DNA of 64,000 bases from Sphyrna mokarran (lineage: Eukaryota). The translations under genes were made by a program, and so were the position numbers. Shown here one piece after another: positions 1,211-64,000 of this stretch. Position 1 is the first letter of the stretch; every line of letters begins with the position of its first letter. Location of the stretch: NCBI GenBank assembly GCA_024679065.1, contig JAGIQG010000009.1, forward strand, positions 36,704,001 through 36,768,000. Direction: 5' to 3'. The notes below the pieces were generated by a model that ran no database searches, was not told the origin of the DNA, and saw only the letters and a list, made by a program, of their open reading frames with translations.

Positions 1211-4200
1211 GTGAGGATCATTATACTTTTTCAGTGAGGAGCTCTCATTCTTCTGTTCTCCTTTGATATATATCTAACTCTGTTTAACTCATTATTAAAA
1301 AGTATTACAAACATCAAGTGATGTGGCTGACACTTTCCTAAAATTACAGGAGCATATATACTTACACTTGATGCATTTCTTTCATGGAATGTGGTTATCA
1401 CTAGCTGTCTCTAAGTGTGCAATTTTAGAGGCAGTTAAGCGGGAACCACATTACTGTGGATCTGGTGGCAGTCTCCTTCTTTAATGATATTAATGAACAA
1501 AAATAATTGACAATAGTTTCAAGGTCACCATCACTGATGCTAGTTTTCCAGATTTTGTTAAGTGAATTTAAATGCTACCAACTGCCATGGTGGGATTGGA
1601 ACCCATGTCCCCAGTACAACCTGGCCCTCTGTGTACTAGTCTAGCGACATTATCTCCAAGCCACCACCTCGCCCTAATGTCAAAGTGGTGTAGAAACTAT
1701 TCTCAGGCAATGGTGCAAAATGATTGGGGTTGAATTAGCCACTCCTACTCTTTTTGCAGCACTGATCAACATGCATTTCTACCCAAAAGTTTTTTTATAA
1801 AATGTGTACTGTAAGTTGTTCCTCGGTGGGAAGAGTTTGTCACTTTTTTGTAACCCTAGATTGAAGGTTTTGACTTGAAAAGAATCGATGAGTATCATCT
1901 GAAAGGAATACAGAATGATGAATATGTATTATGGGAGCATAGACCAGCAAACTCTGGGGAAGCAAAAAACACGAGCAATGGAGATGGCAAAAGCTCTAAT
2001 AAAGCAGACCACAGAAAATCTTCAAATAAAAAAACAGATATCACTGAACCTAATAACCAAAGTAGTTCATTGAAGGAAAAACAAGGCAAAGTAAGTGCAG
2101 TATCTTCTCTTTGTTTTAAAGACGCAGTTATAATTTATGTGCTGTTGTCTTCTTTCTTATTTTTTCACTGTTTATAGGATAGTGCAAGAATTAGAACTTG
2201 GTGTAAAATTGCCTCAATCTTATATTATTTCAGTATTAACTATGAACTGTACATGATTGGGCAAAATTGTATTGATTAAAAAAAATCCCTAGTTGAAAGA
2301 ATTGTAATTTCAAGTCTAATAATATTCATGTTTGTATTCCCGACAGGAAAGCTTTTGAAGGTTGTTAACTGGACAGCTTTGTATTTGAATAGGAAAATGT
2401 ACCAATAATATCCTGCATTACTGAAACTCTATAGATTTGCCTACTGAATTATGGGTCGTAACTGTGTATAAACCCACGCTCCACTCTGCTACCTGAAGGG
2501 AGAAGTATTCAAAGTGAAAATTTGACTAGAATGAAAAATATAAATGAGAAATAAATCTAGCTAGCAGAAGTACAAGAAGGGAGCATAACTAGAATATATG
2601 GTTTTAAGGTTTTTACTATCTCTATATATAAATGACTCAGCATCACAAACCATAATTATTTCAATTAACTTTATAATATCATTGACTTATAGCTGAACCT
2701 GTTTAAATATATAGTTCTAATTCCCAAGTTTCAAATTAGGAGGTAACTTTCTGTAATCTAAGAATTTTGCAATGAAAGTAGTTTAATCTATTATATTGAT
2801 ACAGCTCTGATTTCTTCTTGGTACTAAATTTTTTAATTGACTCTTTTACTGACACAAAGACCTAAGGAGACTTAAAATTATGATGCTTTCCCACTTTTTT
2901 CTTAGGCTGCATTGAAGTTTGGTTCAGCACACCAAGTTTCTCTTGGACACCTCTGGCTAGAATTACTGAAGTTTTACACTCTGGAATTTGCATTGGAAGA
3001 ATACGTCATCTGCATACGGGTAAAAGATCTTGTGTCAAGAGAGCATAAAAACTGGCCGAAAAGGAGAATAGCCATTGAGGGTGAGGTGAACATATACTTA
3101 AAATAGTATTTGATATGTGTAATAAATTTATTTATTTATTTTGTTAGTGTCTCAAGTAAACTTAAATTAACACTGCAGTGAAGTTACTGTGAAAATTTCT
3201 TCGTTGCCACATTCAGGTATATTGAGGGAGAACTTAGCATAGCCAATTCACCTAACCAGCATGTCTTTCGGATTATGGGAGGAAACTGGAGCACCCGGAG
3301 AAAACCCACACAGACACAGGGTGCAAACTCCAAATGGAATGCTCATCAACCAATTAAAGTTTAATTTTTTGATGAAGTAAACATATGACAAATTGCAACC
3401 TCCAAAATGATAAGATTGTACCAATATTTTGCACTAAAGAAAGGGGTTGAGGTTTGAAAGGATACTAATTAATTTTGCATTAGTGAATGACTATCTTTGT
3501 TGTACAAATGTCAGTTTGGTTCAGGAGTAACATTCCATCTCTTGTGGCAGAAGGTTGTGGATAGGTAGTTTATTGCTAAACTCAGCCAGAAGGTGACTAC
3601 AACATTTTATGTGTTGTTGATGGGTTAAACTTAATAATTAAAATAACATCAGTGGAAAATATTTTGAAAATGTATTTCTCTCATTGCTTCTCTTAGGAAG
3701 AGCCTTGTTAGTAAAAATTATTCATGTAACTGATGAGAACTGCATAGGCAGAGGAATTTTGATGGAATTTTGGGTACTGAATGGAAAAAGGGATACGGGA
3801 TTAATGCAGGAAGTTGGGGCCGAGATAGTTGATTAGTCGTGATTGACACCCTTTTTTATACACTTCCTGATTTTCTTCTTCTTTGACTTTCACTGGAAAG
3901 AACTTTGGACAGAATGTAAAACTATTTTCTTTCATCTTCTGAGACAAATTTCACCAACTGTGTGTTTAACCTGGAATTAAAATCTGGCCTTGCAGATAAG
4001 TCTGTATTAACTCTAAGTAATTGCTATGCTCAGCAAAGGAAAATATTAATTCAAATATTACTGTAAGCTTTTTTATTTGAATTTTCCTTCATTCAATTTC
4101 TTTTAATTCTTCCAATCTCTGTATTTTACACTGTGGAGATGCCAGCATTGGACTGAGATGGGCACAGTAAGAAGTCTCACAACACCAGATTAAAGTCCAG

Positions 4201-7200
4201 CAGGTTTATTTTGTATCATGAACTTTCGGAGCACTGCTGCTTCATTAGCTGAGTCACCCACCTGATGAAGGGAAGGTACTCTGAGGTGTTGCGAGATTTC
4301 TTACTGTCCATATTTTAGTGACTTTGAAATGTACTGAGGTCTCAGTAGTAAATTCTTCGCACTTCATACATCTCCAGAATAAAACATTATAGGAAACAGA
4401 AGTTGAATAATTTAAACACATATTTCAAAATTCTAAAATGCCCTAGACCAGGGATTCGCAACATTAGTTACAAGAAAACCATTTTTAAAATTTAGTCAAA
4501 ATCCGCAATATCTTAAAAGTCACAATGCTATTACTCAAATGCCTGTCAATTTAAAAAGCAAGACAAGACAGGAAATGATTATACTTATATTTGCCAAAAT
4601 AAAAAAAAACTTTAATGCAACTTCCGCTGTTGGATTTCTTTGAAGAGTTGTTTGATATCTGGACAGGTTACAGAACATACTCCATCAATCAAGGCCAGTG
4701 ACCACGAGTCCGTAATGAGCCTGCATCTTCAGACCTGCAAATTGCCAACCCATGCCTTAGATCATCTTCAAACTACGTCATTTTGATGGCCTTGATTTCT
4801 GAGAGTTCTGTTATGAATGCCATTGAAATATTTTTGAAGTGCACTTGATATATAAGGAAAAATGTTGGGTAATGTAATTGCTGTGTTTTTTTAACTAGAT
4901 CCCTTTGCACTAAAGAGAAATATTGCTCGGAGTTTGAACAGCCAGATGGTGTTTGAGTATATTCTGGAACGATTTAGGACTGCATACAAATATTTTGCAT
5001 CTCCTCAAATGAAAGACGGGATTAAGTTAAAATCAGATGCCAGAAAAAAAGGGAAAGTCAACAGTAAAAAGCCTATAAAATCTGAAGAACGTTCAGGGAA
5101 CTGTTGTTTGCCACAGAAGGGAACTGCAGTAAAGAGAGATACTAAAGAACCTTCCATCGATGGAGAAATTACAAATGGAACTGATGACTGCATAATACAA
5201 GTATATACTAATGCAAATGTTGAATCTACTGCAAATGTTAAAAAGGATGTTGAGCATTTGGAATTGGAAACTGTTTCATCCTCCAACAATGGAATTGCAG
5301 TGAATTTTAAAAATTGTGATCTGGGGAAGCCAGAGGTTGACAACTGCACAAGAGATTCAAGTGAAAGATTACTCAGTTGTGATTCAGTTGAACAATCCAC
5401 TAGAACACTGGAGGTGGCTGATTCTTCAGAGAGTTGTTCAAAGCAGGCAGGCCTGGAAGAGTTAGGACATGGGTCCATAGAAAATATGATGCCACCAGCC
5501 AGTATGCAGTTGCATCAACATAAAGACAGTTGCAAACTAGGAGTACATTGCTCAGAAGGAACAAATTGCACTGCCAATTGTGTTTCAACTACCTCACAAA
5601 CTTGCACAACAGAAATTGAAGCTCCTAGCTGCACTGTTATTGATGACACTGGAAATGCATCAGAAACAGGGGAACTACATTATGTCTTTGAGAAAAGCAT
5701 CCTGACAAATGGAAAGGCAAGTTATTCTTTACATTTGCATGTACTGACCAATATATCTATTGAGAACATTTTTGTAAAAAAAAGGTTCATCATAGGTAGG
5801 CTCCCTTGAAATTGCAGGTTCAAACCCATCTACACAAGTTGCACAACATTTATCCAACATTTTCAAGGCTTTGTATGATATTCCTGAACAGACTTCTTCT
5901 GTACCTTTGACATTTAACTATTTTTAATAATGAAGCTAAAATGCTGCAATCAGAAACTGGAACTGAAGTATCATGGATTGAAGGTAGGCCTCGGGCTACA
6001 CAAACAATCTGATTGATCTGCTTTTACAGATCCCCAGCCAGGATAACCACTTAGCTCGAGTCGAAAATGCTTATCCTTTAACTGCAGTAGAAACATCAAA
6101 ATTTATGTTTTAATGGAAACTATACTTACAGTTGTTCAAAGATGTTGGAAGTGTTGCCTTTTTAATTTCATTGAGGCTTTCATCCTTGCACTTCAAAATT
6201 ATCAATTGCATTTGATATTCTTCATGAATATATTGCCAAAATATATAAACTGGCTTCAATTTTTGGTTTAGTTTATGGTCTAACAGTAGTAGCCACTATA
6301 TATTGGTTGGGGATGAAAACTGGATTGAGTGAGGTTAGGCCACCTGGATGTTTTTGTAACATGCATTGTTGAGAAAAATGAGAGATTCACTTTTTGAATC
6401 TTGTGTAATGATGCAGTCTGAGAAGGAGTAATTGGACAGAGAGACTTGGATGGCCTGAGATTCAGTAATGAAGTAAAGAGGATGATCAAAGGAGATAAAA
6501 CTTAAGGATTATTTGGAAAAACGGGAATAACTGGAGGCAGAGGAGGAAGATAACATAGCATTTATAGTCTGAAATTTCTAGATGGGGCTTTAGGATAGCT
6601 GGAATCAGGCAACGAGATGATTTGTAGCTGTGAGTTCTTGAGGAATTACCATGGCAACACAACAGATATTGGAAAGCAGGGAGAGAATATTACATTTTGT
6701 AGTCCGAAACAAACATGTGGTGAGCACAGAGTGACTGCAATAGGATTTTGAACTATTATCTCTGATTGCAAAATTCATCATAGCAGATCTCAAAAAGAAA
6801 AAGAAGAAAAATGTATGTCTTTTAGCAAAGGCAAAAATGAAAACAAAGAAAATCTTTGGAGGATTGGTATTTTGTTTATATTTGGTGTTGCTGGATTAAA
6901 ATCATCATTAGTTGAGTTAGAACTTAAGATGTTTGCAGAGAGGCACACAGGAGGGAGATCAAGTGAGGAAAGGCAAGTTTTCATAAGGAGATCCCCACGC
7001 GAAGTGTAATGGACTTCCAGAAAGAACTAGGTAATTTTATGAGCAAAATTTAGCTAGTTTTTATGAATTATTTCAATTTTATATTTTGTTATCTTTAAAA
7101 TTGTTAATTGGGATATCTGGCCAATTGTTGGGGAAACAACATGGTCACTGAAGAAATCAGAAATTGTTCAGTTTGCAGCAGTTGCTGGATGTCTCTGAAC

Positions 7201-54500: not shown

Positions 54501-57500
54501 TCTTTTTTTTAGGACTGAATGGATCATCTCAGGTTTGCACTTGCATGCTGGGAAAAATTCTAAAGATTGATTACAAGTAAGTTTATTGTGACAGCCTTGT
54601 TTGGGTCAAATAATCTGTTCCTAAAACAATGTTTTAAAACTGCATGAAAGTACAATAAACATATCCCTTTTGAAAACAGTTGAAGCTATTGTCACAATAA
54701 AAGACAAATATCTGATATTTAGAATAAACTCGTTAGTTGTATACAAACCTTATCATCATCATCATCTTCATCTTCACTAGTGTCGACATCATCCATATCT
54801 TCCTCCAATGCACTGACTCGTGTATCCAGCATCTCTGCTTCTTCCAACACGTAGCGTTTCTAGATAAACAAAATACTATTTTAAAGCTGACTGATTTATT
54901 ACAAACAATTCAAACAGAATGAAAGTTATGCAAAATTCAGATGGATATTTGAAATTAATTAAAATTTTATTTCATTTAGCAAAGGGTTGCCCTTTGCATA
55001 CAAAAAGCCCTCAAAAAGTTTTTTTTTTTAAACAGTATCAAGAAACACTTAAATCTAGCCATTATTGCACTTATGCAAACCACTTCTATTAAATTTCTGC
55101 TTGCAGAATCCCAAGTTATGGATCTTTGGAAAATATAACTGTTGTTAACTGTTACTCTGAATGGGATATGTTCCTGGCACCAACCCCATACTTTTGTATT
55201 CCCCCTTCCAAATACCGAAGGCAAAATTCTTAATCGAAAAGGTTCTACTTGTGAAGAGAGCAACATAGAGTACCTCCTTAGAGATATTCATTTGAAATTC
55301 TAGGAGAAAGCTGTTTGATCGGACAAAATAATAAGCAATTTTGCCGTCTGGCTCAGTACAGCCTCGTTAGCCCAATCACTGTCAAATATATCTATGATCT
55401 TCAGTTGGTCATAGGATCAGATGATTTCAAAGTTTACTACCATTAGCAATTCGCCTGAGCATGAACCAGTCAATGTCACCCTACAGCAAGATTTGGAGAG
55501 GATCTATGCTTAAGTTGACAAGTGACAAGCAACATTCAAAATCACCCAAGTAGTAGGCAATGACCACTTCCAACAAGTAAAGGCATAAAACACATACACC
55601 ATTGCCAAATCTACCAATGTTTCAGCTACCAAGGCTCATACAAAGAATATATTGGAATTCTTACATCCGATCTGGATGGAAGAGGCATCTGAAACAGTCA
55701 AGAAATTTGATACCATGCAAAACAAAGCAATTATTTGGCTGACTCCTCTGCAACTGATCTCAATATCCACTTCTTCATATCAATACATGCACTACATCTG
55801 CAGCACTAGCCAAATGCACTGATGCAACTTATCAAGATTACCCTGATAACTCTTGCTGGCCCTGTGATCTCGACCAGAGGAAAACGTCAGCAATACAATA
55901 GGAACACTAACAACTCAAGGCATCCTTTCAAATCACAAATCAATTGGAGTTGGTTCCTTGTTGTCATGAATTTCCAGATACCAAAATCACCACAAGAACT
56001 GCAGAGATTAGAAATGCTCACTGGTTTAATTAGGGATGGTTGCTTTGGCCATATTCAAAGAACACTTTAAAAAAATGTGGCTGTTTAACTGAGAGATTTT
56101 CCAGTTAGGATGTTGGTGGCCTATTGTTTAAAGTCACCGTGTAGATATTCTACTTGGATACAGACAAAGTCAAATTAAAGAAAAGACAAACATGACTAAT
56201 TCATCCTGCACATTGTCATTTTCTTAGACGGTGTAACATGTAGAAGTTAGTTTTTCCACTTACATCAAAACCTTGCATTGAACCAGCTCAACTGTGTCAG
56301 GCAATTTATCTATTCTGAACAAAAAATGAACTCAGTCCTTATCCAAACACAAGCCTTTTCATATTTAAAAGATGCATCCTTTAGAGCATTGACAAGTCAC
56401 TCACCTTATAGTAACAGATGTAGTCATAATCTAGCAAATGAACAAAGCAAATCTAGCACATGGGGTCAATACTAAATTGATTGAACAAAGTGACATGAGT
56501 GCAATCAATCCATATATTGAAGATTTGCTTCACTATTTTAGAAGATTCTGAGCATTTGTGTAGAATTTTTCAGGACACTAAAAATTATTATACACTTTGT
56601 AGAGAATATTCCATTACATTCTGACTTGTGCCTTGTAGATGGTAGTCAATCTTTGGGGAGACAGGAGTTGAATTACTCATCACATGATTCCTCACCTTTA
56701 CTGCTCTGGTAGCCACAATATTCGTATGGCTAGCCCAGTTCAATCTCTGGTAAATGATAACCCCAGGATGACAGTGGGAAATTCAGCAATGGGATGTTAT
56801 GGGATGATGGTCAGATTTTCTCTTGTTGGAGATGGCCATTGTCTAGCACGTGTGTGATGCAAATGCTCCTCGTTACCCCATGCTTGGATATTGTCCTGGT
56901 CTTGTTGTATCTGAACACGGACATGGACTGCTTCAGTATCTGAGGAGTTGCAAATGGTGCTGAACATTGTTTGCTGATGACTTCACATTCTCACCCCTAA
57001 CCTTACGATGGAAGTAAGATCATTGATGAAACAGCTGAGCTTAGAACACTACCTTGAATAATTCCTGTAGTGATGCCCTGGAGCTGAGATGTTGACCTCC
57101 AACCACCAAAACCATCTTCCTTTGTGCCAGGTATTACCCCAGCCAGTGGAAGGGTTTCACCCCGAAGCCCACCGACCCCAGTTTTGCCAGGACTTCTTGA
57201 TGCCAAACTCAGTCAAATGTTGCCTTAATATCAAGGGCAGTCACTCTCACCTCACTGTCAGTAATTTTGCAAGAAAAGTAAACCACATTTTACTCCAAGA
57301 TACAATTTAACAAACAATTCTCTGAACCCCAGATATTCTTGTTTGTCTTAAAGTGCTGACTCTTTAGTGCATATGGTTCCATAGGCATCATCAGCCCTTT
57401 GTTGCTTTGTCATAGTAGCCATTCTTTACGCATGAGCCTACAGTGTGGATATTGGCACACGGTTTAATCATAGTGGTGTTTGGGGGATCAAGGAGGAAGG

Positions 57501-60500
57501 CACCAGCACATTGTAGCTGTATCAATTCCTATTCTCACCTAATACTTTTCAATAAGAGAGAGTGGAAAAAAGGTCAGTCTTTTCATTTTCCTCATGTTAA
57601 GTACTAATAATTGGAGATAAAGAACAAACATTTCTCAATATTATAATTTTGTACCTGAAGTCGGGGCAAGATAATATCACAAACTCGCTCTTCATGGAGT
57701 AACTCATCCATAAATTCATCCACATGAATAAGTTCAAACTCTGGAGAAGAAGAGAACATGATAATGTGAATCCAAAGTAATATATCAAAACTTGAAGTTT
57801 CATCTTAGCTTAGAAATTATTTATATGTAAATAAGTGAGCACTCGTTGATCCCATTTAAGAATTGATTAACTTGGAAGAAAATTAAGTCTAAAATACCTA
57901 GAATTAAAACTAGATCTTGAAGCTTTTGACACAATTTCATAACTCTTCATAATTTGCAATATGCAATGTAAAATAATTTTACAATAGACAAGTTTAATAT
58001 AAGCAGATTGAGCATGATTCAAGTCACCAGATTTCTCAACTGACTTAGTTTACAACCATCAAGGATACAACAATAATTTTCAAGGATTTAACAGTCAAAA
58101 ATGAAAGTTTGTTACTGAGAGTGAATACTTGTGAGTGAACTGAGATTAGAAATTGATGTGTACCAAACAATTGATAATAAAGCGATTTCATATCACTGCA
58201 ATCTATTTTTCAATATCATTAGTGAACAAAGTACATTTGCTCCAAAAGTTTCATGCCACAAGGCACTTAATTCTGGAAAACAATTAGGTCCCACTTTTAC
58301 TCACAGCTGGAACAATCTTTACCTCCATCTCTCTTTTGTCTCTTCACTTTTCGATAATCATTATAGAGTGGTTCCAGATATTTATAACAATCAATGGCAG
58401 AGCCCGTCAGCCGCATGTACAAAGCACCCAGCAACCTAACATACCTGGGTTAAAAAAAAATTTAAAAGAGTTTAAGCTTCAGTTAGGAAATTCTTCATTT
58501 GTAAAACACATTGCTTCATTGATAATCTAATAACATTTGACACCAGAGAACTTCATTGTGCAATAAGAAAGTATATATGTAACGCTTCATTCATGTCATT
58601 GCACAGGGCAACTAATATCCAACGCTCATTGATTTCTTTCTCCCCGTAACAAGGGCAATTACATTTTACTTCCTGCAGTTTCATTTTTTTTGTAATAATC
58701 TCCATTCATGTTGAAGAATGAATAGTTTAATGTGCACAGCTTCCTCAAATTGGTGTTCTTCATGTATATGTTAAGAATGGTAAGTCAACGAAGAACTGCA
58801 TCGCAATCCAGCATGACTCTGTTCTCAGAGTCCTCATATGCACATTTTCTAACAGGAAACATCAAATAGCAAAATGAACCAGAAACTGTGGCTAATTATT
58901 TATACTTCAGCATATTCATTGCTTTAACATTTATCTGGATTATAACTGGACAATGAACATTGAAATTGATAAGTTTATGAATTATTTGATTATAAATAAA
59001 TTTTACGTACTTAAAATCTTCATTCTTTATAAATTCAACAATGATATCCTTTTCAGGTTGAATTTGAAGCATCTTAAGGGTCAGACAAAGGAATGGTGAA
59101 GGTTTAATATTCCCACCATAGACACCACCAATGTATTTCAGTTCCATGGCTTTGTCCACAACCAATTCCGCTAAGAAGCAAAGGAAAAATCTGTTTGTGA
59201 TAATATTTTCAAAGCATAGGCCAACTTCTCAATAACTGAATCAATCTGTTATTAGACTTAAAAAATAAAGCCTTGTAAGGATTGTAATAAAGAAGATGCA
59301 AGAGCTAACAACGAAAATGCAACTGAGTGTTTAAAGAAAGTTTCTAAACTACAATTTAACACAAGTGCAATTGGCTCATCAATAAATCACTCACCTGACG
59401 AAGGGGCAATGTTCCAAAAGCTCATGCCACTGTGTTGGACATTAACCTGGGGCTGTGAGACTACTTATTGTGCCTATCCCAGTCCAACGCGAGCAACTCC
59501 ACATAATAAATAAACCTTGAGCCCTCCATCCCCGCAACTTCTACTGCATTTCCCACTTTCCTTTCTTTGCCAGAGTCCTTGAATGTTGTCATCTCTTAGA
59601 TGTCTACGCATCTTTCCTAGTATTCTGTTTTTGAATCACTCTTGCCATAGTATAAAATGAATCTTGTCAAAATCACAAATTACATCCTATGCAACTGTGA
59701 CAAAAGCTAATTATCCCTCTTTGTCCATCTCAACTTCACAGTGGTTAGTACTGCTCCCTCACAGCATCAGGGGCCCGTGTTCGATCCCTGCTTGGGTCAC
59801 ATGTCTGCATGAATTTCCTCCCAGTGCTTCATTTCCTCCCATAGTCCAAAACATAGATTGATTAGGTGCACTGATCTTGCTAAAATGTCCCTCAGTGTAC
59901 CCAAACAGGCAACATAGGGATTTTCACAGTAACTTCATTGCACTGTTAATGTAATCCTACTTGTGACAATAAATAAATAAACTTAAACCTGTCTGCAACC
60001 TTTTACATGGTTAACCACACCAGTCTTCACCATCGACCAGCTGTGTGACACTGCACTTGCTTGGTTCCATTCTTACTTATTTAATCAAAGCCAAAGCATC
60101 ACTTGCAATGCTTTCTTTTCCCTATCATACACTTTTCTCCCTGACATCCCTCAGGATCTTTGCCTCCTTCCCTCCTATTTCTCACTTGTATGCTGCCCCC
60201 AACAATATCACCTGAAACCGCACCCATTTCCATGGGAATGCCAATAACATCCAGCTGTTACCTCGCCACCACCTCTCTCAACTCTTCTGCCATTTTTAAC
60301 TTGTCAGACAGCTCCAATACCAGATCAGCAGAAATTTTTCCAGCTAAACTTTGCTGACAACTAAGCCATTGTCTTCAATGCTCACCAGAAACTCCATTTC
60401 CTAACTAGCCACCACATTCCTCTCCGAGGATGAGCTAGACTGTTCATAACCTTAGTGTTATATTTGACCCAGAAAGATTCTGACCACATATTTATCTCAT

Positions 60501-61940
60501 TAGTAAGACCACCAATTTCCACATGCATAATGTTGCCACACTATCACAATACAATCCTGTTTAGCCTTACACTTTTTACTTTCTGCATTTCCATATCCTA
60601 ACTTGTACTGAGTGCCACTCACGCCATTATCCACATTCTTGTTGATTTACATTGGCTCCCCAATTGAGTAATACCAACTTTTTTTTCAGATCCCTCAAAG
60701 GCTTCATCCTCCCTACCTTTTTAATCTCATTCAGCCTTACAACCTTTGCAGTTATCAATACTTCTTGAATTGTGGTCTTGTATTTCATTCACTCCAACAC
60801 TGGAGGCTGTGTCTTTAGCTGCCAAGGTCTGGAATTCACTCTGTAAACTTCACCTCTGCACCTTGCTTTCCTTCTTCAAGATGCCTCTTAAAACTTATTT
60901 CTTTGCCAAAGCTTATTATCATCTGCCCTAATCTCTCACGTGGCTCAATGTTAAATTTTGATAATGATTCCGTGCAGTACCTTGATAATTATGTCATTCC
61001 TCATTTTTCTTCACAAAATGTATTAACTCACACAATCTAATTAAATTATCCTGTCCAAATTTGTCCATTCTGCTAACCTATCTATGCCTCCTTTTCTACT
61101 ATTGTCAAACAGTTTCCACATTCTCAACATTATTTTGAGACTATATTGATATGAAAACAATGAAATCTTAGTATAAAACTTCTCAGTTTATTTATTAGTC
61201 ACAACTAGGCTTATGTCAACACTGCAACGAAGTTACTGTGAAAATGCCTTAGTCACCACACTCTGGCACCTGTTTGGGTACACTGAGCACAACCAGTGCA
61301 CCTAACCAGTACACCTTTCGGATTGTGGGAGGAAACTGGAGCAAACCCACACAGACACAGGGAGAACATGCAGACTCTGCATAGACGTGACCCAACTTGG
61401 GAATTCGAACCTGGGTCTCTGGTGTTGTAAGACAGTGTGCTAACTACTGCACCACTGTGCCAATCAGGGGAAACTCAGTAAGAGACCTGACAACACCAAT
61501 TTTAAATCCAACCGATTTATTTGATAGTAAACTTGCTAGCTTTCGGCCTTTGTGCCTTCGTCAGACGGATGAGGTGTTCTGGTCTGTTCTGGCAGACCAG
61601 AACACCTCATCCACCTGACGAAGGCACAAAGGCTGAAAGCTAGCAAGTTTACTATCAAATAAATTGGTTGGATTTAAAATTGGTGTTGCTAAATTCTTAC
61701 TGAGTCCTTACTACCCCAGTCCAACGCCGGCATCTATACATCCTGGCAAAGGGGCCCAGGCCTCAATCATAGTCTAAAACTGTGCTTGATTCTCCAGCCC
61801 CATTCTCTACCTGTCAGCCCGAAACATTCTTCCTTCCAGTACTTGGACTCGTAGATACGGGTGCGAATGATTTTCTCGATCAAATACTGCGGGTTAGTCC
61901 CATGAATGCTATGAGCATCTTTCACCGTCCGGTTCGCCAT
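51515..61940 (-). CDS. PRPF38A: Pre-mRNA-splicing factor 38A, complete 10-exon CDS (939 nt, 312 aa)
   Basis: MANRTVKDAHSIHGTNPQYLIEKIIRTRIYESKYWKEECFGLT start, PRP38 domain, acidic stretch and RS-rich tail ending SKKSHKKSRRGNE*. All introns GT-AG; exon lengths 130,160,122,86,111,113,27,98,49,43. Confidence 0.96.
51643..51691 (-). CDS. PRPF38A: PRPF38A exon 9 (GHHRSHRHRSHSKTPE)
   Basis: ttag acceptor, gtatta donor. Confidence 0.92.
52618..52715 (-). CDS. PRPF38A: PRPF38A exon 8 (PSPRRERHRSKSPRRHRSRSRDRRHRSRSKSP)
   Basis: gaag acceptor, gtataa donor; RS domain. Confidence 0.92.
52804..52830 (-). CDS. PRPF38A: PRPF38A exon 7, 27-nt microexon (RSRSPKRR)
   Basis: acag acceptor, gtaaga donor; phase-compatible. 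Confidence 0.9.
53255..53730 (-). mobile_element. CR1-like LINE 3' end
   Basis: catagaagtttacagcacggaaacagg..ttcggccc tail and RT C-terminal remnants. Confidence 0.75.
53846..53958 (-). CDS. PRPF38A: PRPF38A exon 6 (GDRVPSPEPPRRGYRDLDRPRRSPSPRYRRSRSKTPR)
   Basis: ctag acceptor, gtgaga donor. Confidence 0.92.
54749..54859 (-). CDS. PRPF38A: PRPF38A exon 5 (KRYVLEEAEMLDTRVSALEEDMDDVDTSEDEDDDDDK)
   Basis: ctag acceptor, gtttgt donor. Confidence 0.93.
56630..57260 (-). mobile_element. Decayed CR1/L2-clade LINE RT fragment
   Basis: ORF 57003..57206 contains ITTGIIQGSVL (RT G.PQGS motif); related copies at 55320-56050 and 63125-63500 in opposite orientation. Confidence 0.55.
57655..57740 (-). 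CDS. PRPF38A: PRPF38A exon 4 (EFELIHVDEFMDELLHEERVCDIILPRLQ)
   Basis: ccag acceptor, gtacaa donor. Confidence 0.94.
58323..58444 (-). CDS. PRPF38A: PRPF38A exon 3 (YVRLLGALYMRLTGSAIDCYKYLEPLYNDYRK...DG)
   Basis: ccag acceptor, gtaaag donor. Confidence 0.94.
59011..59170 (-). CDS. PRPF38A: PRPF38A exon 2 (AELVVDKAMELKYIGGVYGGNIKPSPFLCL...NEDFK)
   Basis: ORF 58896..59165; ttag acceptor, gtacgt donor. Confidence 0.95.
59391..59504 (+). mobile_element. Penelope-like pseudo-LTR remnant (same family)
   Basis: tcacctgacgaaggggcaatgttccaaaagctc...gttggacattaacctgg...ccagtccaacgc. Confidence 0.6.
59737..59985 (+). mobile_element. tRNA-derived SINE
   Basis: cacagtggttagtactgct..gttcgatccc..gttaatgtaatcctacttgtgacaataaataaataaa. 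Confidence 0.75.
61187..61460 (-). mobile_element. tRNA-derived SINE
   Basis: Reverse complement of the same family (gggaggaaactggagc..gaattcgaacctggg..gctaactactgcaccac). Confidence 0.8.
61473..61740. mobile_element. Penelope-like pseudo-LTR element in inverted (palindromic) arrangement with hammerhead-like cores
   Basis: Arms 61473-61586 and 61593-61705 are reverse complements; CTGACGA-A-GGC..GCC/T-GAAA-GCTA motif; 3' tail ccccagtccaacgccggcatct shared with copies at 4133 and 59391. Confidence 0.7.
61811..61940 (-). CDS. PRPF38A: PRPF38A exon 1 (coding part)
   Basis: ATG at 61940; donor gtagag. Confidence 0.95.
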
Positions 61941-61985
61941 TGCAATCCCGGCAGGCAAGGCGGCACCTGAGTCAGAACTCGATGG

Positions 61986-62107
61986 AGCGCCCCCTCCGGC
62001 CGGGCAGACATCCCGCTCACAGCGCCCCCCTCCGGCCGGGCAGACATCCCGCTCACAGCGCCCCCTCCGGCCGGGCAGACATCCCGCTCACAGCGCCCCC
62101 TCCGGCC
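61986..62107. repeat. 35/36-bp GC-rich minisatellite, ~3.5 copies (AGCGCCCCCTCCGGCCGGGCAGACATCCCGCTCAC)
   Basis: Direct tandem copies read in sequence. Confidence 0.95.
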
Positions 62108-62214
62108 TGGAGGAACTCAGGTATTTTGTAATTAATTTAAATATACCCAGAATGCATTGTGATGCCTTAGCTGACCGGAATGGCGCGAAAATCTCACATT
62201 GCGGCTGAGGAAAA

Positions 62215-62385
62215 GATAGCGGGGAATCGGCCGGAGCGGAGAGGATAGCGGGGAATCGGCCGGAGCGGAGAGGATAGCGGGGAATCGGCCGGAGCGGAGA
62301 GGATAGCGGGGAATCGGCCGGAGCGGAGAGGATAGCGGGGAATCGGCCGGAGCGGAGAGGGTAGCGGGGAATCGGCCGGAGCGGA
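62215..62385. repeat. 29-bp minisatellite, ~6 copies (GATAGCGGGGAATCGGCCGGAGCGGAGAG)
   Basis: Five identical copies plus one near-complete copy. Confidence 0.97.
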
Positions 62386-63124
62386 TTTTAATTCTTGTGT
62401 TTCACTTTAAATTTTATCCGGGTGGGAATCACCCTGCTTCTCCTCAGCGGGTGTATTTTATTTCATTTTTTATGTTTTATCTTCTGGAGTTTGCCGAACC
62501 TCTGCTGAAATGAGCAGCTATCTGACCAGGTTGAGGGAGCGGCAGAGACACATTTACAGCTGGGCTGGCAATGCTATCGATGTGAACCGCAGATTGCGGC
62601 AGACCGGCTATGAGTGAGTGACTGCTGAATCTCATCCAGATTAATAGTGATATCTGAATCAGACAGACTGGGATGTGGAAATGTGACCGCCTCAAGTTAC
62701 CCTAATCCAGCCCTACACTTATTTTTCTTTGTTTCTGTCTCAAATCAGCAATCCCCTGTTTATAAAGTAGTTCTGGATTCTCCCTCAAGAGGAAACATCC
62801 TCTCCGTATCCACCCTGTCCATACCCTAAATCTTAAAAGTCTTGATCAAGTTGCCTCTTATTTTTCTAAGCTTGAGTGAATACAAAACTATTCTTCTGTG
62901 AGGGCAGGTTGTTTCCTCACAAAACAACCTGCCCATTCCTGGTGTTAGTTTAGAAGGTTTATCTCCCATCTTTTCTTCAGTGAGGAAGCCAGTCTTATAC
63001 ACAATACTCCAGATGTGGTTTCACCAATGTTCCATACAACTGAAACATTATCTTCCTACTTCAAAAATGATAACATTTTGTTAGCATTCCCAATTATTTG
63101 TTGGACTGAATAGCCTACTTCTAC

Positions 63125-63500
63125 TGGCTCTATCTGTATGCTATCAACATCCTGGGACTATCATTGATCAGAAACTGAACTGTCCTGGCCACGTAAACAT
63201 TGTGGCTATAAAAGCAGGTCGGAGACAAGGAATCTTGTATTAAGTAACTCACCTCCTGACTTCCCAAAATCTGTCCACCATCCACAAGGCACAAATCAGG
63301 AGTGTGATAGAGTACTTGCCTCTTGGCAGGATGAACAGCACTGAAGAAGATTAACAGCATAACAAAGCGATCCCTATGATTGTCAACCCCATCTATAAAC
63401 ATTCACTTTCTCTACCACTGTACAGTGGCAACAGTATGTACCATTTCAAGGATGCACTGCAGCAAGTCACCCAGCATCTTCCAAACCTTTAACTTTAGTA
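63125..63500 (+). mobile_element. Decayed CR1/L2-clade LINE fragment
   Basis: aacatcctgggact..gatcagaaactgaactg..cacaaggcacaaatcaggagtgtga, reverse-complement similarity to the 56630 copy. Confidence 0.5.
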
Positions 63501-63769
63501 GTGCTTCTGTATACAGGTTGGAGTTCACAGTACTCAGCCTTTCAATTTCATCCTTGTAGAAATGAAGTGTTTTATGTTTATATAACTTTGCTAACCTGTG
63601 TTCCTACTTTGTCTATCTGTAACGTTCTAATCCCTCTGTCCTCTACACCATTTAGATACTTATTTTCCAAGATGTATTCTATCTCCTTGTTCTTCCTACC
63701 AATATATGCTTCCTCACACTTTTGTATTGACACTAATTTGCAAGTAATATGTTCATTTTTTTTTAAGAG

Positions 63770-64000
63770 CAACACAGACGGGAAACAGGCCCTTCGGCCC
63801 AACGAGCCCGTGCTGCCGTCATAACTATATAGTAGCAAATCCATTATCCTATTATATTATTCCTATATAATAATATATATATTATTCCTAATATGGAAAA
63901 CTCTCACTATAGGGACAATTTGTTTCCCAATCAGCCTAAGAGCGAATTTTTGGGTTGTGGGAGGAAACCGGAGTGCCCGGAGAAAACCCACGCAACCACG
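63770..64000 (-). mobile_element. SINE 3' part, cut by window end
   Basis: ggaaacaggcccttcggccc tail; gtgggaggaaaccggagtgcccggagaaaacccacg. Confidence 0.75.

Follow-up and report, generated by a model that had tools for sequence, protein, structure and literature searches.

A hammerhead-bearing palindrome in intron 1 of PRPF38A of Sphyrna mokarran and its probable origin as a head-to-head Penelope-like insertion

Structure of the intronic palindrome and its hammerhead motifs

The window, the whole 64,000-nt stretch of Sphyrna mokarran DNA that was analysed, contains exon 1 of PRPF38A on the minus strand; its coding part (61940-61811) lies outside the element described here and matches Pfam PRP38 (E 4.7e-12), in agreement with the host gene named in an earlier note on this DNA. 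Intron 1 spans 61810-59171 on the same strand and contains a gap-free palindrome with arms at 61491-61586 and 61593-61688, each 96 nt long and 96% complementary to the other across a 6-nt spacer. The inner arms are mismatched at four positions (61514/61665, 61545/61634, 61565/61614, and 61566/61613), and pairing runs beyond them, with a bulge, to about 61474/61704. The predicted fold has an energy of -192 kcal/mol (z -27.5), and none of 200 shuffled sequences was equally stable. The near-perfect palindrome of the earlier note is thus confirmed, as is its distance of ~105 nt between donor site and stem, but the element does not end at 61705 as had been proposed. It extends from 61467 to about 61745 (true end ~61742-61745), which brings an unpaired tail to within ~65-68 nt of the PRPF38A donor site.

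The left arm (61467-61586, minus strand) is an inverted, untailed copy of a Penelope-like 3' end (pLTR); it aligns at 94% to positions 1812-1931 of the reference copy L057, belongs to subfamily 1 throughout, and ends at an upstream site, designated B, where a few bases are common with the target. The loop (61587-61592) repeats left-arm bases 61577-61582 and, by comparison with junctions elsewhere in the family, is likely a templated insertion from the joining of two copies. The inner part of the forward arm (61593-61688, plus strand) pairs with the left arm and aligns with subfamily 1. At 61689 this arm changes to subfamily 2, and pairing is imperfect beyond 61688 because of the switch; the outer part (61689-61745, plus strand) includes a ~35-nt tail, and such an end is present at 11 other loci. 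In full-length copies the tail end corresponds exactly to the ORF ATG, designated site A.

A tRNA-headed SINE (61190-61462, minus strand, approximate boundaries) adjoins the left arm as a separate insertion. Its tRNA match at 61388-61461 is below threshold (E 0.57) and no tRNA was found by ARAGORN; we take the segment to be a SINE, with an inverted partner at ~59785-59967. Two related SINE copies, at ~59740-59985 and ~61190-61462, thus lie in opposite orientation in intron 1; they contain 76-100% complementary pieces 1.2-1.6 kb apart and could form a second dsRNA in PRPF38A pre-mRNA. The same intron contains an older, decayed single pLTR of another subfamily with a broken hammerhead core (59387-59504, plus strand), and a decayed pLTR fragment, 79% identical to the reference, is located at 4132-4211 on the minus strand. 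GC-rich tandem repeats occupy 61986-62110 and 62209-62385 (35-36-nt unit, 3-4 copies; 29-nt unit, about 6 copies) in the PRPF38A 5' UTR/promoter region.

Hammerhead motifs are present where the earlier note had placed the two cores, at 61564-61537 on the minus strand, which is the PRPF38A sense strand, and at 61615-61642 on the plus strand, antisense to the gene. Their description as minimal type I hammerheads with an extra A and an AGCU stem III agrees with published features of such motifs (PMC4209133). The minus-strand motif has all core boxes, the extra base after position 9, G10.1-C11.1, and the palindromic stem III. Its core and 3-bp stem II are intact and its stem I is reduced by a 2.1 C>U wobble and two C.A mismatches; in the plus-strand motif, changes at CpG sites have produced C11.1>U and, in stem I, 2.2 G>A. 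The C.A at position 2.4-1.4, a state of 2 of 77 family arms, is common to both window arms. Stem I, which had been called weak, is damaged on both strands.

Among 87 motifs from 90 loci the hammerhead covaries across subfamilies. At stem II 10.3-11.3 four pair types occur and 93% of motifs are paired, versus 46% after shuffling; at stem I 2.2-1.2 (A-U in 46, G-C in 26) the values are 83% and 67%, and positions 2.3, 2.4, and 2.6 of stem I are not above shuffles, the shuffles ignoring relatedness and the independent events being few. This stem covariation indicates that the motif is a real pLTR hammerhead at the family level. An Rfam scan of 56000-64000 returned no hammerhead family at E <= 10, and its only matches were to miRNA hairpins, below threshold, which are attributable to the perfect stem. 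The published minimal motifs themselves came from a descriptor search, not from Rfam (PMC4209133).

Self-cleavage, raised as a possibility in the earlier note, is not favoured by folding predictions. When each motif is folded alone, the minus-strand motif forms stem II with p 0.59 and stem I with p 0.03-0.05, and the plus-strand motif forms stem II with p 0.02 and stem I with p ~0. In the fold of the full element all five tested ribozyme pairs have a probability of 0.0000 on either strand. Whichever strand is read, the complementary arm is transcribed before the motif, and no cis dimer is possible because the second motif sits on the opposite strand. Single minimal motifs gave no in vitro cleavage (PMC4209133), dimer-cleavage work is cited in PMC6765202, and the motif of the anole Penelope-like element (PLE) needs protein and is dispensable for insertion (PMC11167929). 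On these predictions the window motifs are very probably locked in the hairpin and inert.

The parent element and the layout of its copies

A first-look search of the shark's genome (2.77 Gb) yielded 3372 candidates; 40 loci were scored, and, the window itself aside, all match on both strands at 83-94%. The window hammerhead variant has 348 exact genome copies and the general motif 4185, with none for reversed controls. Both arms match the last ~150 nt, at the 3' end, of the longer element L057 at 87-94%; this ORF-bearing reference copy encodes an RT (RVT_1), and its relatives, full-length copies included, show 91-92% amino-acid identity. L219 and L221 have the structure pLTR - 893-aa ORF - pLTR, and in L219, L221, and L215 the arm sequence is found on both sides of the ORF. 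The L219 ORF matches RVT_1 (E 1.2e-9) and, below the curated cut-off of 22.6 bits, GIY-YIG (E 4e-4, 21.1 bits); a CX4CX2C linker, a pair of cysteines within the GIY-YIG core, and a CCHH motif were read in the translations. Homologues carry both the RT and the GIY-YIG families, the closest named proteins are uncharacterised shark ORFs (82-83%), and a PDB search with the RT gave a single match (E 0.28). The Penelope pLTR origin suggested earlier is borne out by the match of the arms to the 3' end of RT and GIY-YIG elements, and the window palindrome is almost certainly a PLE stub, a 5'-truncated insertion of this abundant element. A C-terminal GIY-YIG with a CX2-5CxxC linker defines Neptune/Nematis (PMC8557442), and by this motif definition the parent would be of Neptune/Nematis type, the assignment to one or the other resting on motif and host.

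Several features of the wider family were noted. Many copies of subfamily 2 (L219, L221, L220, L222-L226) have long open frames of 873-945 codons between stops, which makes a recent origin of the subfamily likely; in its hammerhead, stem II has 5 bp and CUC replaces CUA. L227 and L228 are multi-kb head-to-head pairs of ORF-bearing copies, one tailed and one untailed. L231 and L232 carry an identical insertion with identical flanks 711 kb apart on C749, either a segmental duplication or an assembly duplicate. At L058:1497-3394 a PLE copy is interrupted by a separate RT-bearing element, presumably LINE-like.

The layout of the family was assessed in 95 of the first 100 matches listed, out of 348 in all, a sample biased to copies with an intact hammerhead, which gave 90 insertions. 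Among these listed matches 48 insertions were two-arm, 37 single-arm, and 5 complex; the complex insertions were left out of the two-arm counts, and L058 and L112 out of the junction counts. Exactly one arm was tailed in all 48 two-arm copies (46 A+B, two A plus a shorter end), a result with P ~2e-16 if ends were independent at the single-arm rate of 14/37. On the reference, tailed arms end at 1949-1961 and untailed arms at 1911-1935 in 46 copies and shorter in two. A wider, overlapping set obeyed the one-tail rule in 121 of 123 pairs, and 60 newly fetched loci did so in 30 of 31. The A+A exception, L219, is a tandem with an untailed downstream end; the B+B exception, L274, is genuine and has an 11-bp TSD. 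TSDs of at least 9 bp (median 12) flank 46 of the 48 sampled two-arm copies and 15 of the 37 single-arm copies, compared with 5.4% of 427 mismatched flank pairs; the best match for the window copy is 6 nt, which equals the control median. Hidden inverted pieces were sought beside the 37 single-arm copies and L058: L134 scored 38 against a control maximum of 25, L074 and L067 were only marginally above controls, and the remaining single-arm copies had none above control.

Centres, arm lengths, and ends differ from copy to copy, with arms from ~60 nt to more than 1.9 kb that reach the RT ORF. Tight palindromes resembling that of the window make up 26 of the 48 sampled two-arm copies, and the others extend into the ORF. 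Junctions of 46 family copies comprise 22 with overlap, 3 blunt, and 21 with inserted bases; those of L044, L053, L055, and L123 carry insertions copied from target or element sequence close by, which to us resembles a polymerase-theta end-joining signature. In 92 pairs the junction-start positions form a broad cluster at reference 1804-1839, with none at 1860-1866 and five at 1857-1859, a stretch in which a 6-bp palindrome makes the position imprecise; the distribution is also biased by the sampling on intact hammerheads. The variable centres and the anatomy of the family indicate that the palindrome is rebuilt at each insertion rather than moved as a unit. A MITE or other fixed non-autonomous palindrome was rejected as an identity, given the asymmetric ends and the variable centres and lengths. 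No tandem repeat of the arm was found at the locus, and sampled family copies are head-to-head or single; this, together with the variable centres, arms, and ends and the extension into the RT ORF, speaks against the non-autonomous or retrozyme-like unit proposed in the earlier note.

The same proposal held the unit to be young or gene-converted. The window arms differ at 4 of 96 positions in the inner part and at 9 of 108 overall; the family arm-arm distance has a mean of 5.4% (n = 43), separate copies differ from one another by 6.6%, and 38 of the 43 family pairs are at least as alike as the window arms. Three of the four inner mismatches fall at CpG sites. Across 112 pairs, before removal of two duplicates, CpG differences between arms match independence (for example 39 vs 37.9 and 23 vs 22.4), and non-CpG variants are mostly common to both arms (4 discordant vs 30 expected; 5 vs 15.5). 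Because CpG sites behave independently and non-CpG variants are shared, the arms must have been alike at the outset and have since decayed independently, with no ongoing conversion; relative to its family the window copy is neither young nor gene-converted.

Formation of the two-arm insertion

Overall, the window copy is in our judgement probably a 5'-truncated EN+ PLE insertion, composed of an inverted untailed and a forward tailed copy, that likely arose in one event primed from both nicked strands and is predicted to have its ribozymes locked; priming on both target strands, taken by itself, is somewhat favoured. The one-tail rule, the fact that either arm can be the longer one, and the discordant arms of some family pairs all point towards it. 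In such an event the element endonuclease would nick both target strands about 12 bp apart. One target 3' end would prime at the tail end, site A at the ORF start, and the other would prime ~35 nt upstream, at site B, aided by a microhomology of a few bases. After early termination of both cDNAs, microhomology or templated insertion would connect them head-to-head; in a variant, one cDNA would fold back and its copy anneal to the other cDNA. The arms would usually derive from the same or an identical RNA and sometimes from two RNAs. In vitro, the protein of an anole PLE has been found to cut both strands and extend them from two start sites, one on either side of the tail (PMC11167929).

An alternative origin of the inverted arm is fold-back self-priming of the first cDNA or of antisense RNA, the latter already proposed in print (PMC3846280); the product would then jump to the target close to site B, and later deletions would give the asymmetry. 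It would directly predict the coupling of arm lengths that is observed (Spearman 0.64; 19 of 48 copies within 20 nt of each other vs 9.1 expected), and it is consistent with palindromic junctions such as that of L006 and with the sharing of non-CpG variants beyond chance (position 1865 is discordant in 4 of 93 pairs vs 30 expected). Microhomology at B also fits it: the mean is 3.4 nt at B, 1.4 at A, and 0.7 for the null (n = 34, leaving out the 14 of 48 copies without an exact TSD of at least 9), only B and A being fairly comparable since BLAST ends inflate the measure. The excess at B over A is also in line with priming on both strands, the second priming site in L1 twin priming having microhomology too (PMC2837659). 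Against it, the untailed arm extends at least 20 nt further 5' in 12 of the 48 sampled two-arm copies (the tailed arm does so in 17), the excess reaching 597 nt in L146, where the 12-bp TSD is preserved; a longer untailed arm cannot arise by simple copying of the tailed cDNA. Single-arm copies also end at B with the same distribution, the positions of A ends (KS p 0.97) and of B ends (KS p 0.70) being alike in the single-arm and two-arm groups. In 13 of 89 pairs the two arms disagree at no fewer than two of the 8 diagnostic sites; the background rate predicts 1.7, a number that would be raised if the diagnostic sites are mutation hot spots, and random pairing predicts 57%. A TSD of at least 9 bp is kept at 9 of 12 discordant loci checked (L060 and L116 were left out of this recheck), so that discordant arms lie within one TSD, as in L035, L273, and L013. 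We therefore regard this route, on its own, as unlikely. The B+B insertion L274, with its 11-bp TSD, counts in turn against dual A/B priming. Priming at both ends, combined with the folding of one cDNA back onto its partner, would be a hybrid route that fits all counts as well as the pattern of the window copy and L013. The fuller proposal for PLEs is evenly poised in our assessment: an asymmetric complex would prime at the tail end and ~35 nt upstream and may load two RNAs, and the window copy would be a fossil of an event in which one of the two cDNAs folded back and annealed to the other. If dual priming is true, it would explain the inverted pLTR together with the one-sided tail, whose formation has been called undefined (PMC8557442).

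The subfamily switch adds a question specific to the window copy. The exact 36-nt outer end recurs at 11 other loci, two of them apparently a single locus in duplicate. Every one has the subfamily-2 hammerhead, and their partner arms agree with subfamily 2 where they reach that region. The mixed 66-nt stretch has one occurrence in the genome at <=2 mismatches, compared with 526 for the pure subfamily-1 stretch; with this single genome-wide match, a recombinant subfamily was rejected as the source of the mixed arm. The subfamily-2 outer end either came from a second RNA or was acquired later, when a nearby insertion became fused to this one. A post-insertion deletion or ectopic conversion, at this locus only, could have brought together a subfamily-1 palindrome and a subfamily-2 copy next to it by way of a shared block of ~40 nt; the switch falls where the two subfamilies have identical sequence, no second copy of the mixed stretch occurs in the genome, and the window copy lacks the TSD (best 6 nt) present in 46 of 48 sampled two-arm copies. 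The window copy and L206 (7 of 8 sites discordant), both without a TSD (best 6 nt), may accordingly be fusions. On the other side, the SINE adjoining the left end could have removed the TSD, and L013 has a similar pattern, shared inside and different outside, yet retains a 13-nt TSD. We place such a fusion slightly below an even chance.

The idea that a self-standing non-autonomous or retrozyme-like unit acts on PRPF38A through its hairpin or ribozyme, by self-cleavage, editing, siRNA production, or altered splicing, gains something from the intact sense-strand core, from the similarly tight palindromes in 26 of 48 sampled two-arm copies, and from the general plausibility of a ~110-bp duplex near the donor as an ADAR or Dicer substrate. 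It is nevertheless very improbable: the centre is different in every copy and grades into ORF-length arms, tandem units are absent, CpG decay is neutral, the ribozyme pairs have p 0.0000 in context with no same-strand partner, and single minimal motifs did not cleave in vitro (PMC4209133). Putative editing, endo-siRNA, and splicing effects would hold equally for many other copies, and the sequence of the window copy carries no sign of selection. An inverted duplication introduced by the assembler or the library has a negligible probability, since the same layout recurs at 48 independent loci, 46 of them with TSDs; moreover, the arms differ at CpG sites and by subfamily, and one arm has a unique tail. 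The locus is unremarkable as a 5'-truncated PLE insertion; PLE stubs of this kind number in the hundreds to thousands. The family is a natural data set on how inverted repeats and tails form, and a prediction for the existing in vitro PLE system follows directly from its one-tail rule and discordant arms.

Relation to known systems

The head-to-head layout itself is already published (PMC3846280, PMC8557442, PMC4209133). EN+ PLE insertions can carry an inverted, 5'-truncated copy and a one-sided tail of 30-40 bp (PMC8557442), and Pen2a_Av of Adineta vaga has an inverted pLTR, a tail, a 9-10-bp TSD, and a palindromic junction (PMC3846280). The present family resembles these EN+ PLEs in its head-to-head pLTRs, one-arm tail, TSD of about 9-16 bp, and palindromic or microhomologous junction. 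The window copy differs from Pen2a_Av-type insertions in that both arms are cut to the pLTR, so that the hairpin is near-perfect and ~230 nt long, a subfamily change occurs within one arm, and no TSD survives. A proposal of dual priming for PLEs was not found in the literature searched, where subscription papers are thinly covered, and the available text of PMC9977147 adds nothing on inverted insertions, which that of PMC11167929 does not treat either.

Metazoan PLE minimal type I hammerheads (PMC4209133) have the same core boxes, extra base after position 9, G10.1-C11.1, and palindromic 15.2-16.2, and pairs of hammerheads 100-700 bp apart on opposite strands have been reported (PMC4209133). 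The window stems are shorter than those of Schistosoma, with 3 bp versus 4-5 bp in stem II and 2 bp plus mismatches versus 7-8 bp in stem I (PMC4209133). The non-LTR retrozymes (bioRxiv 10.64898/2026.07.22.740005) are likewise pLTR-derived and non-coding with a type I hammerhead, but they are head-to-tail tandems of a fixed unit, whereas the window copy is head-to-head with no fixed unit.

The 893-aa ORF of the parent is like those of Neptune/Nematis PLEs in its RT, its CX4CX2C linker, and the two cysteines in the GIY-YIG core (PMC8557442). In PAc, the Poseidon element of Anolis, two RT start sites bracket the tail, as two end clusters ~35 nt apart do here; the PAc sites lie 111-118 nt inside the ORF (PMC11167929), whereas here site A is the ATG and site B is upstream. 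L1 twin and dual priming (PMC2837659) are alike in that both strands are primed, the inverted arm lies within one TSD, and microhomology is present at the second priming site. L1 'dual priming' uses two RNAs (PMC2837659). Twin priming of L1 yields non-overlapping fragments (PMC2837659), whereas in the shark PLE both arms copy the same 3' region.
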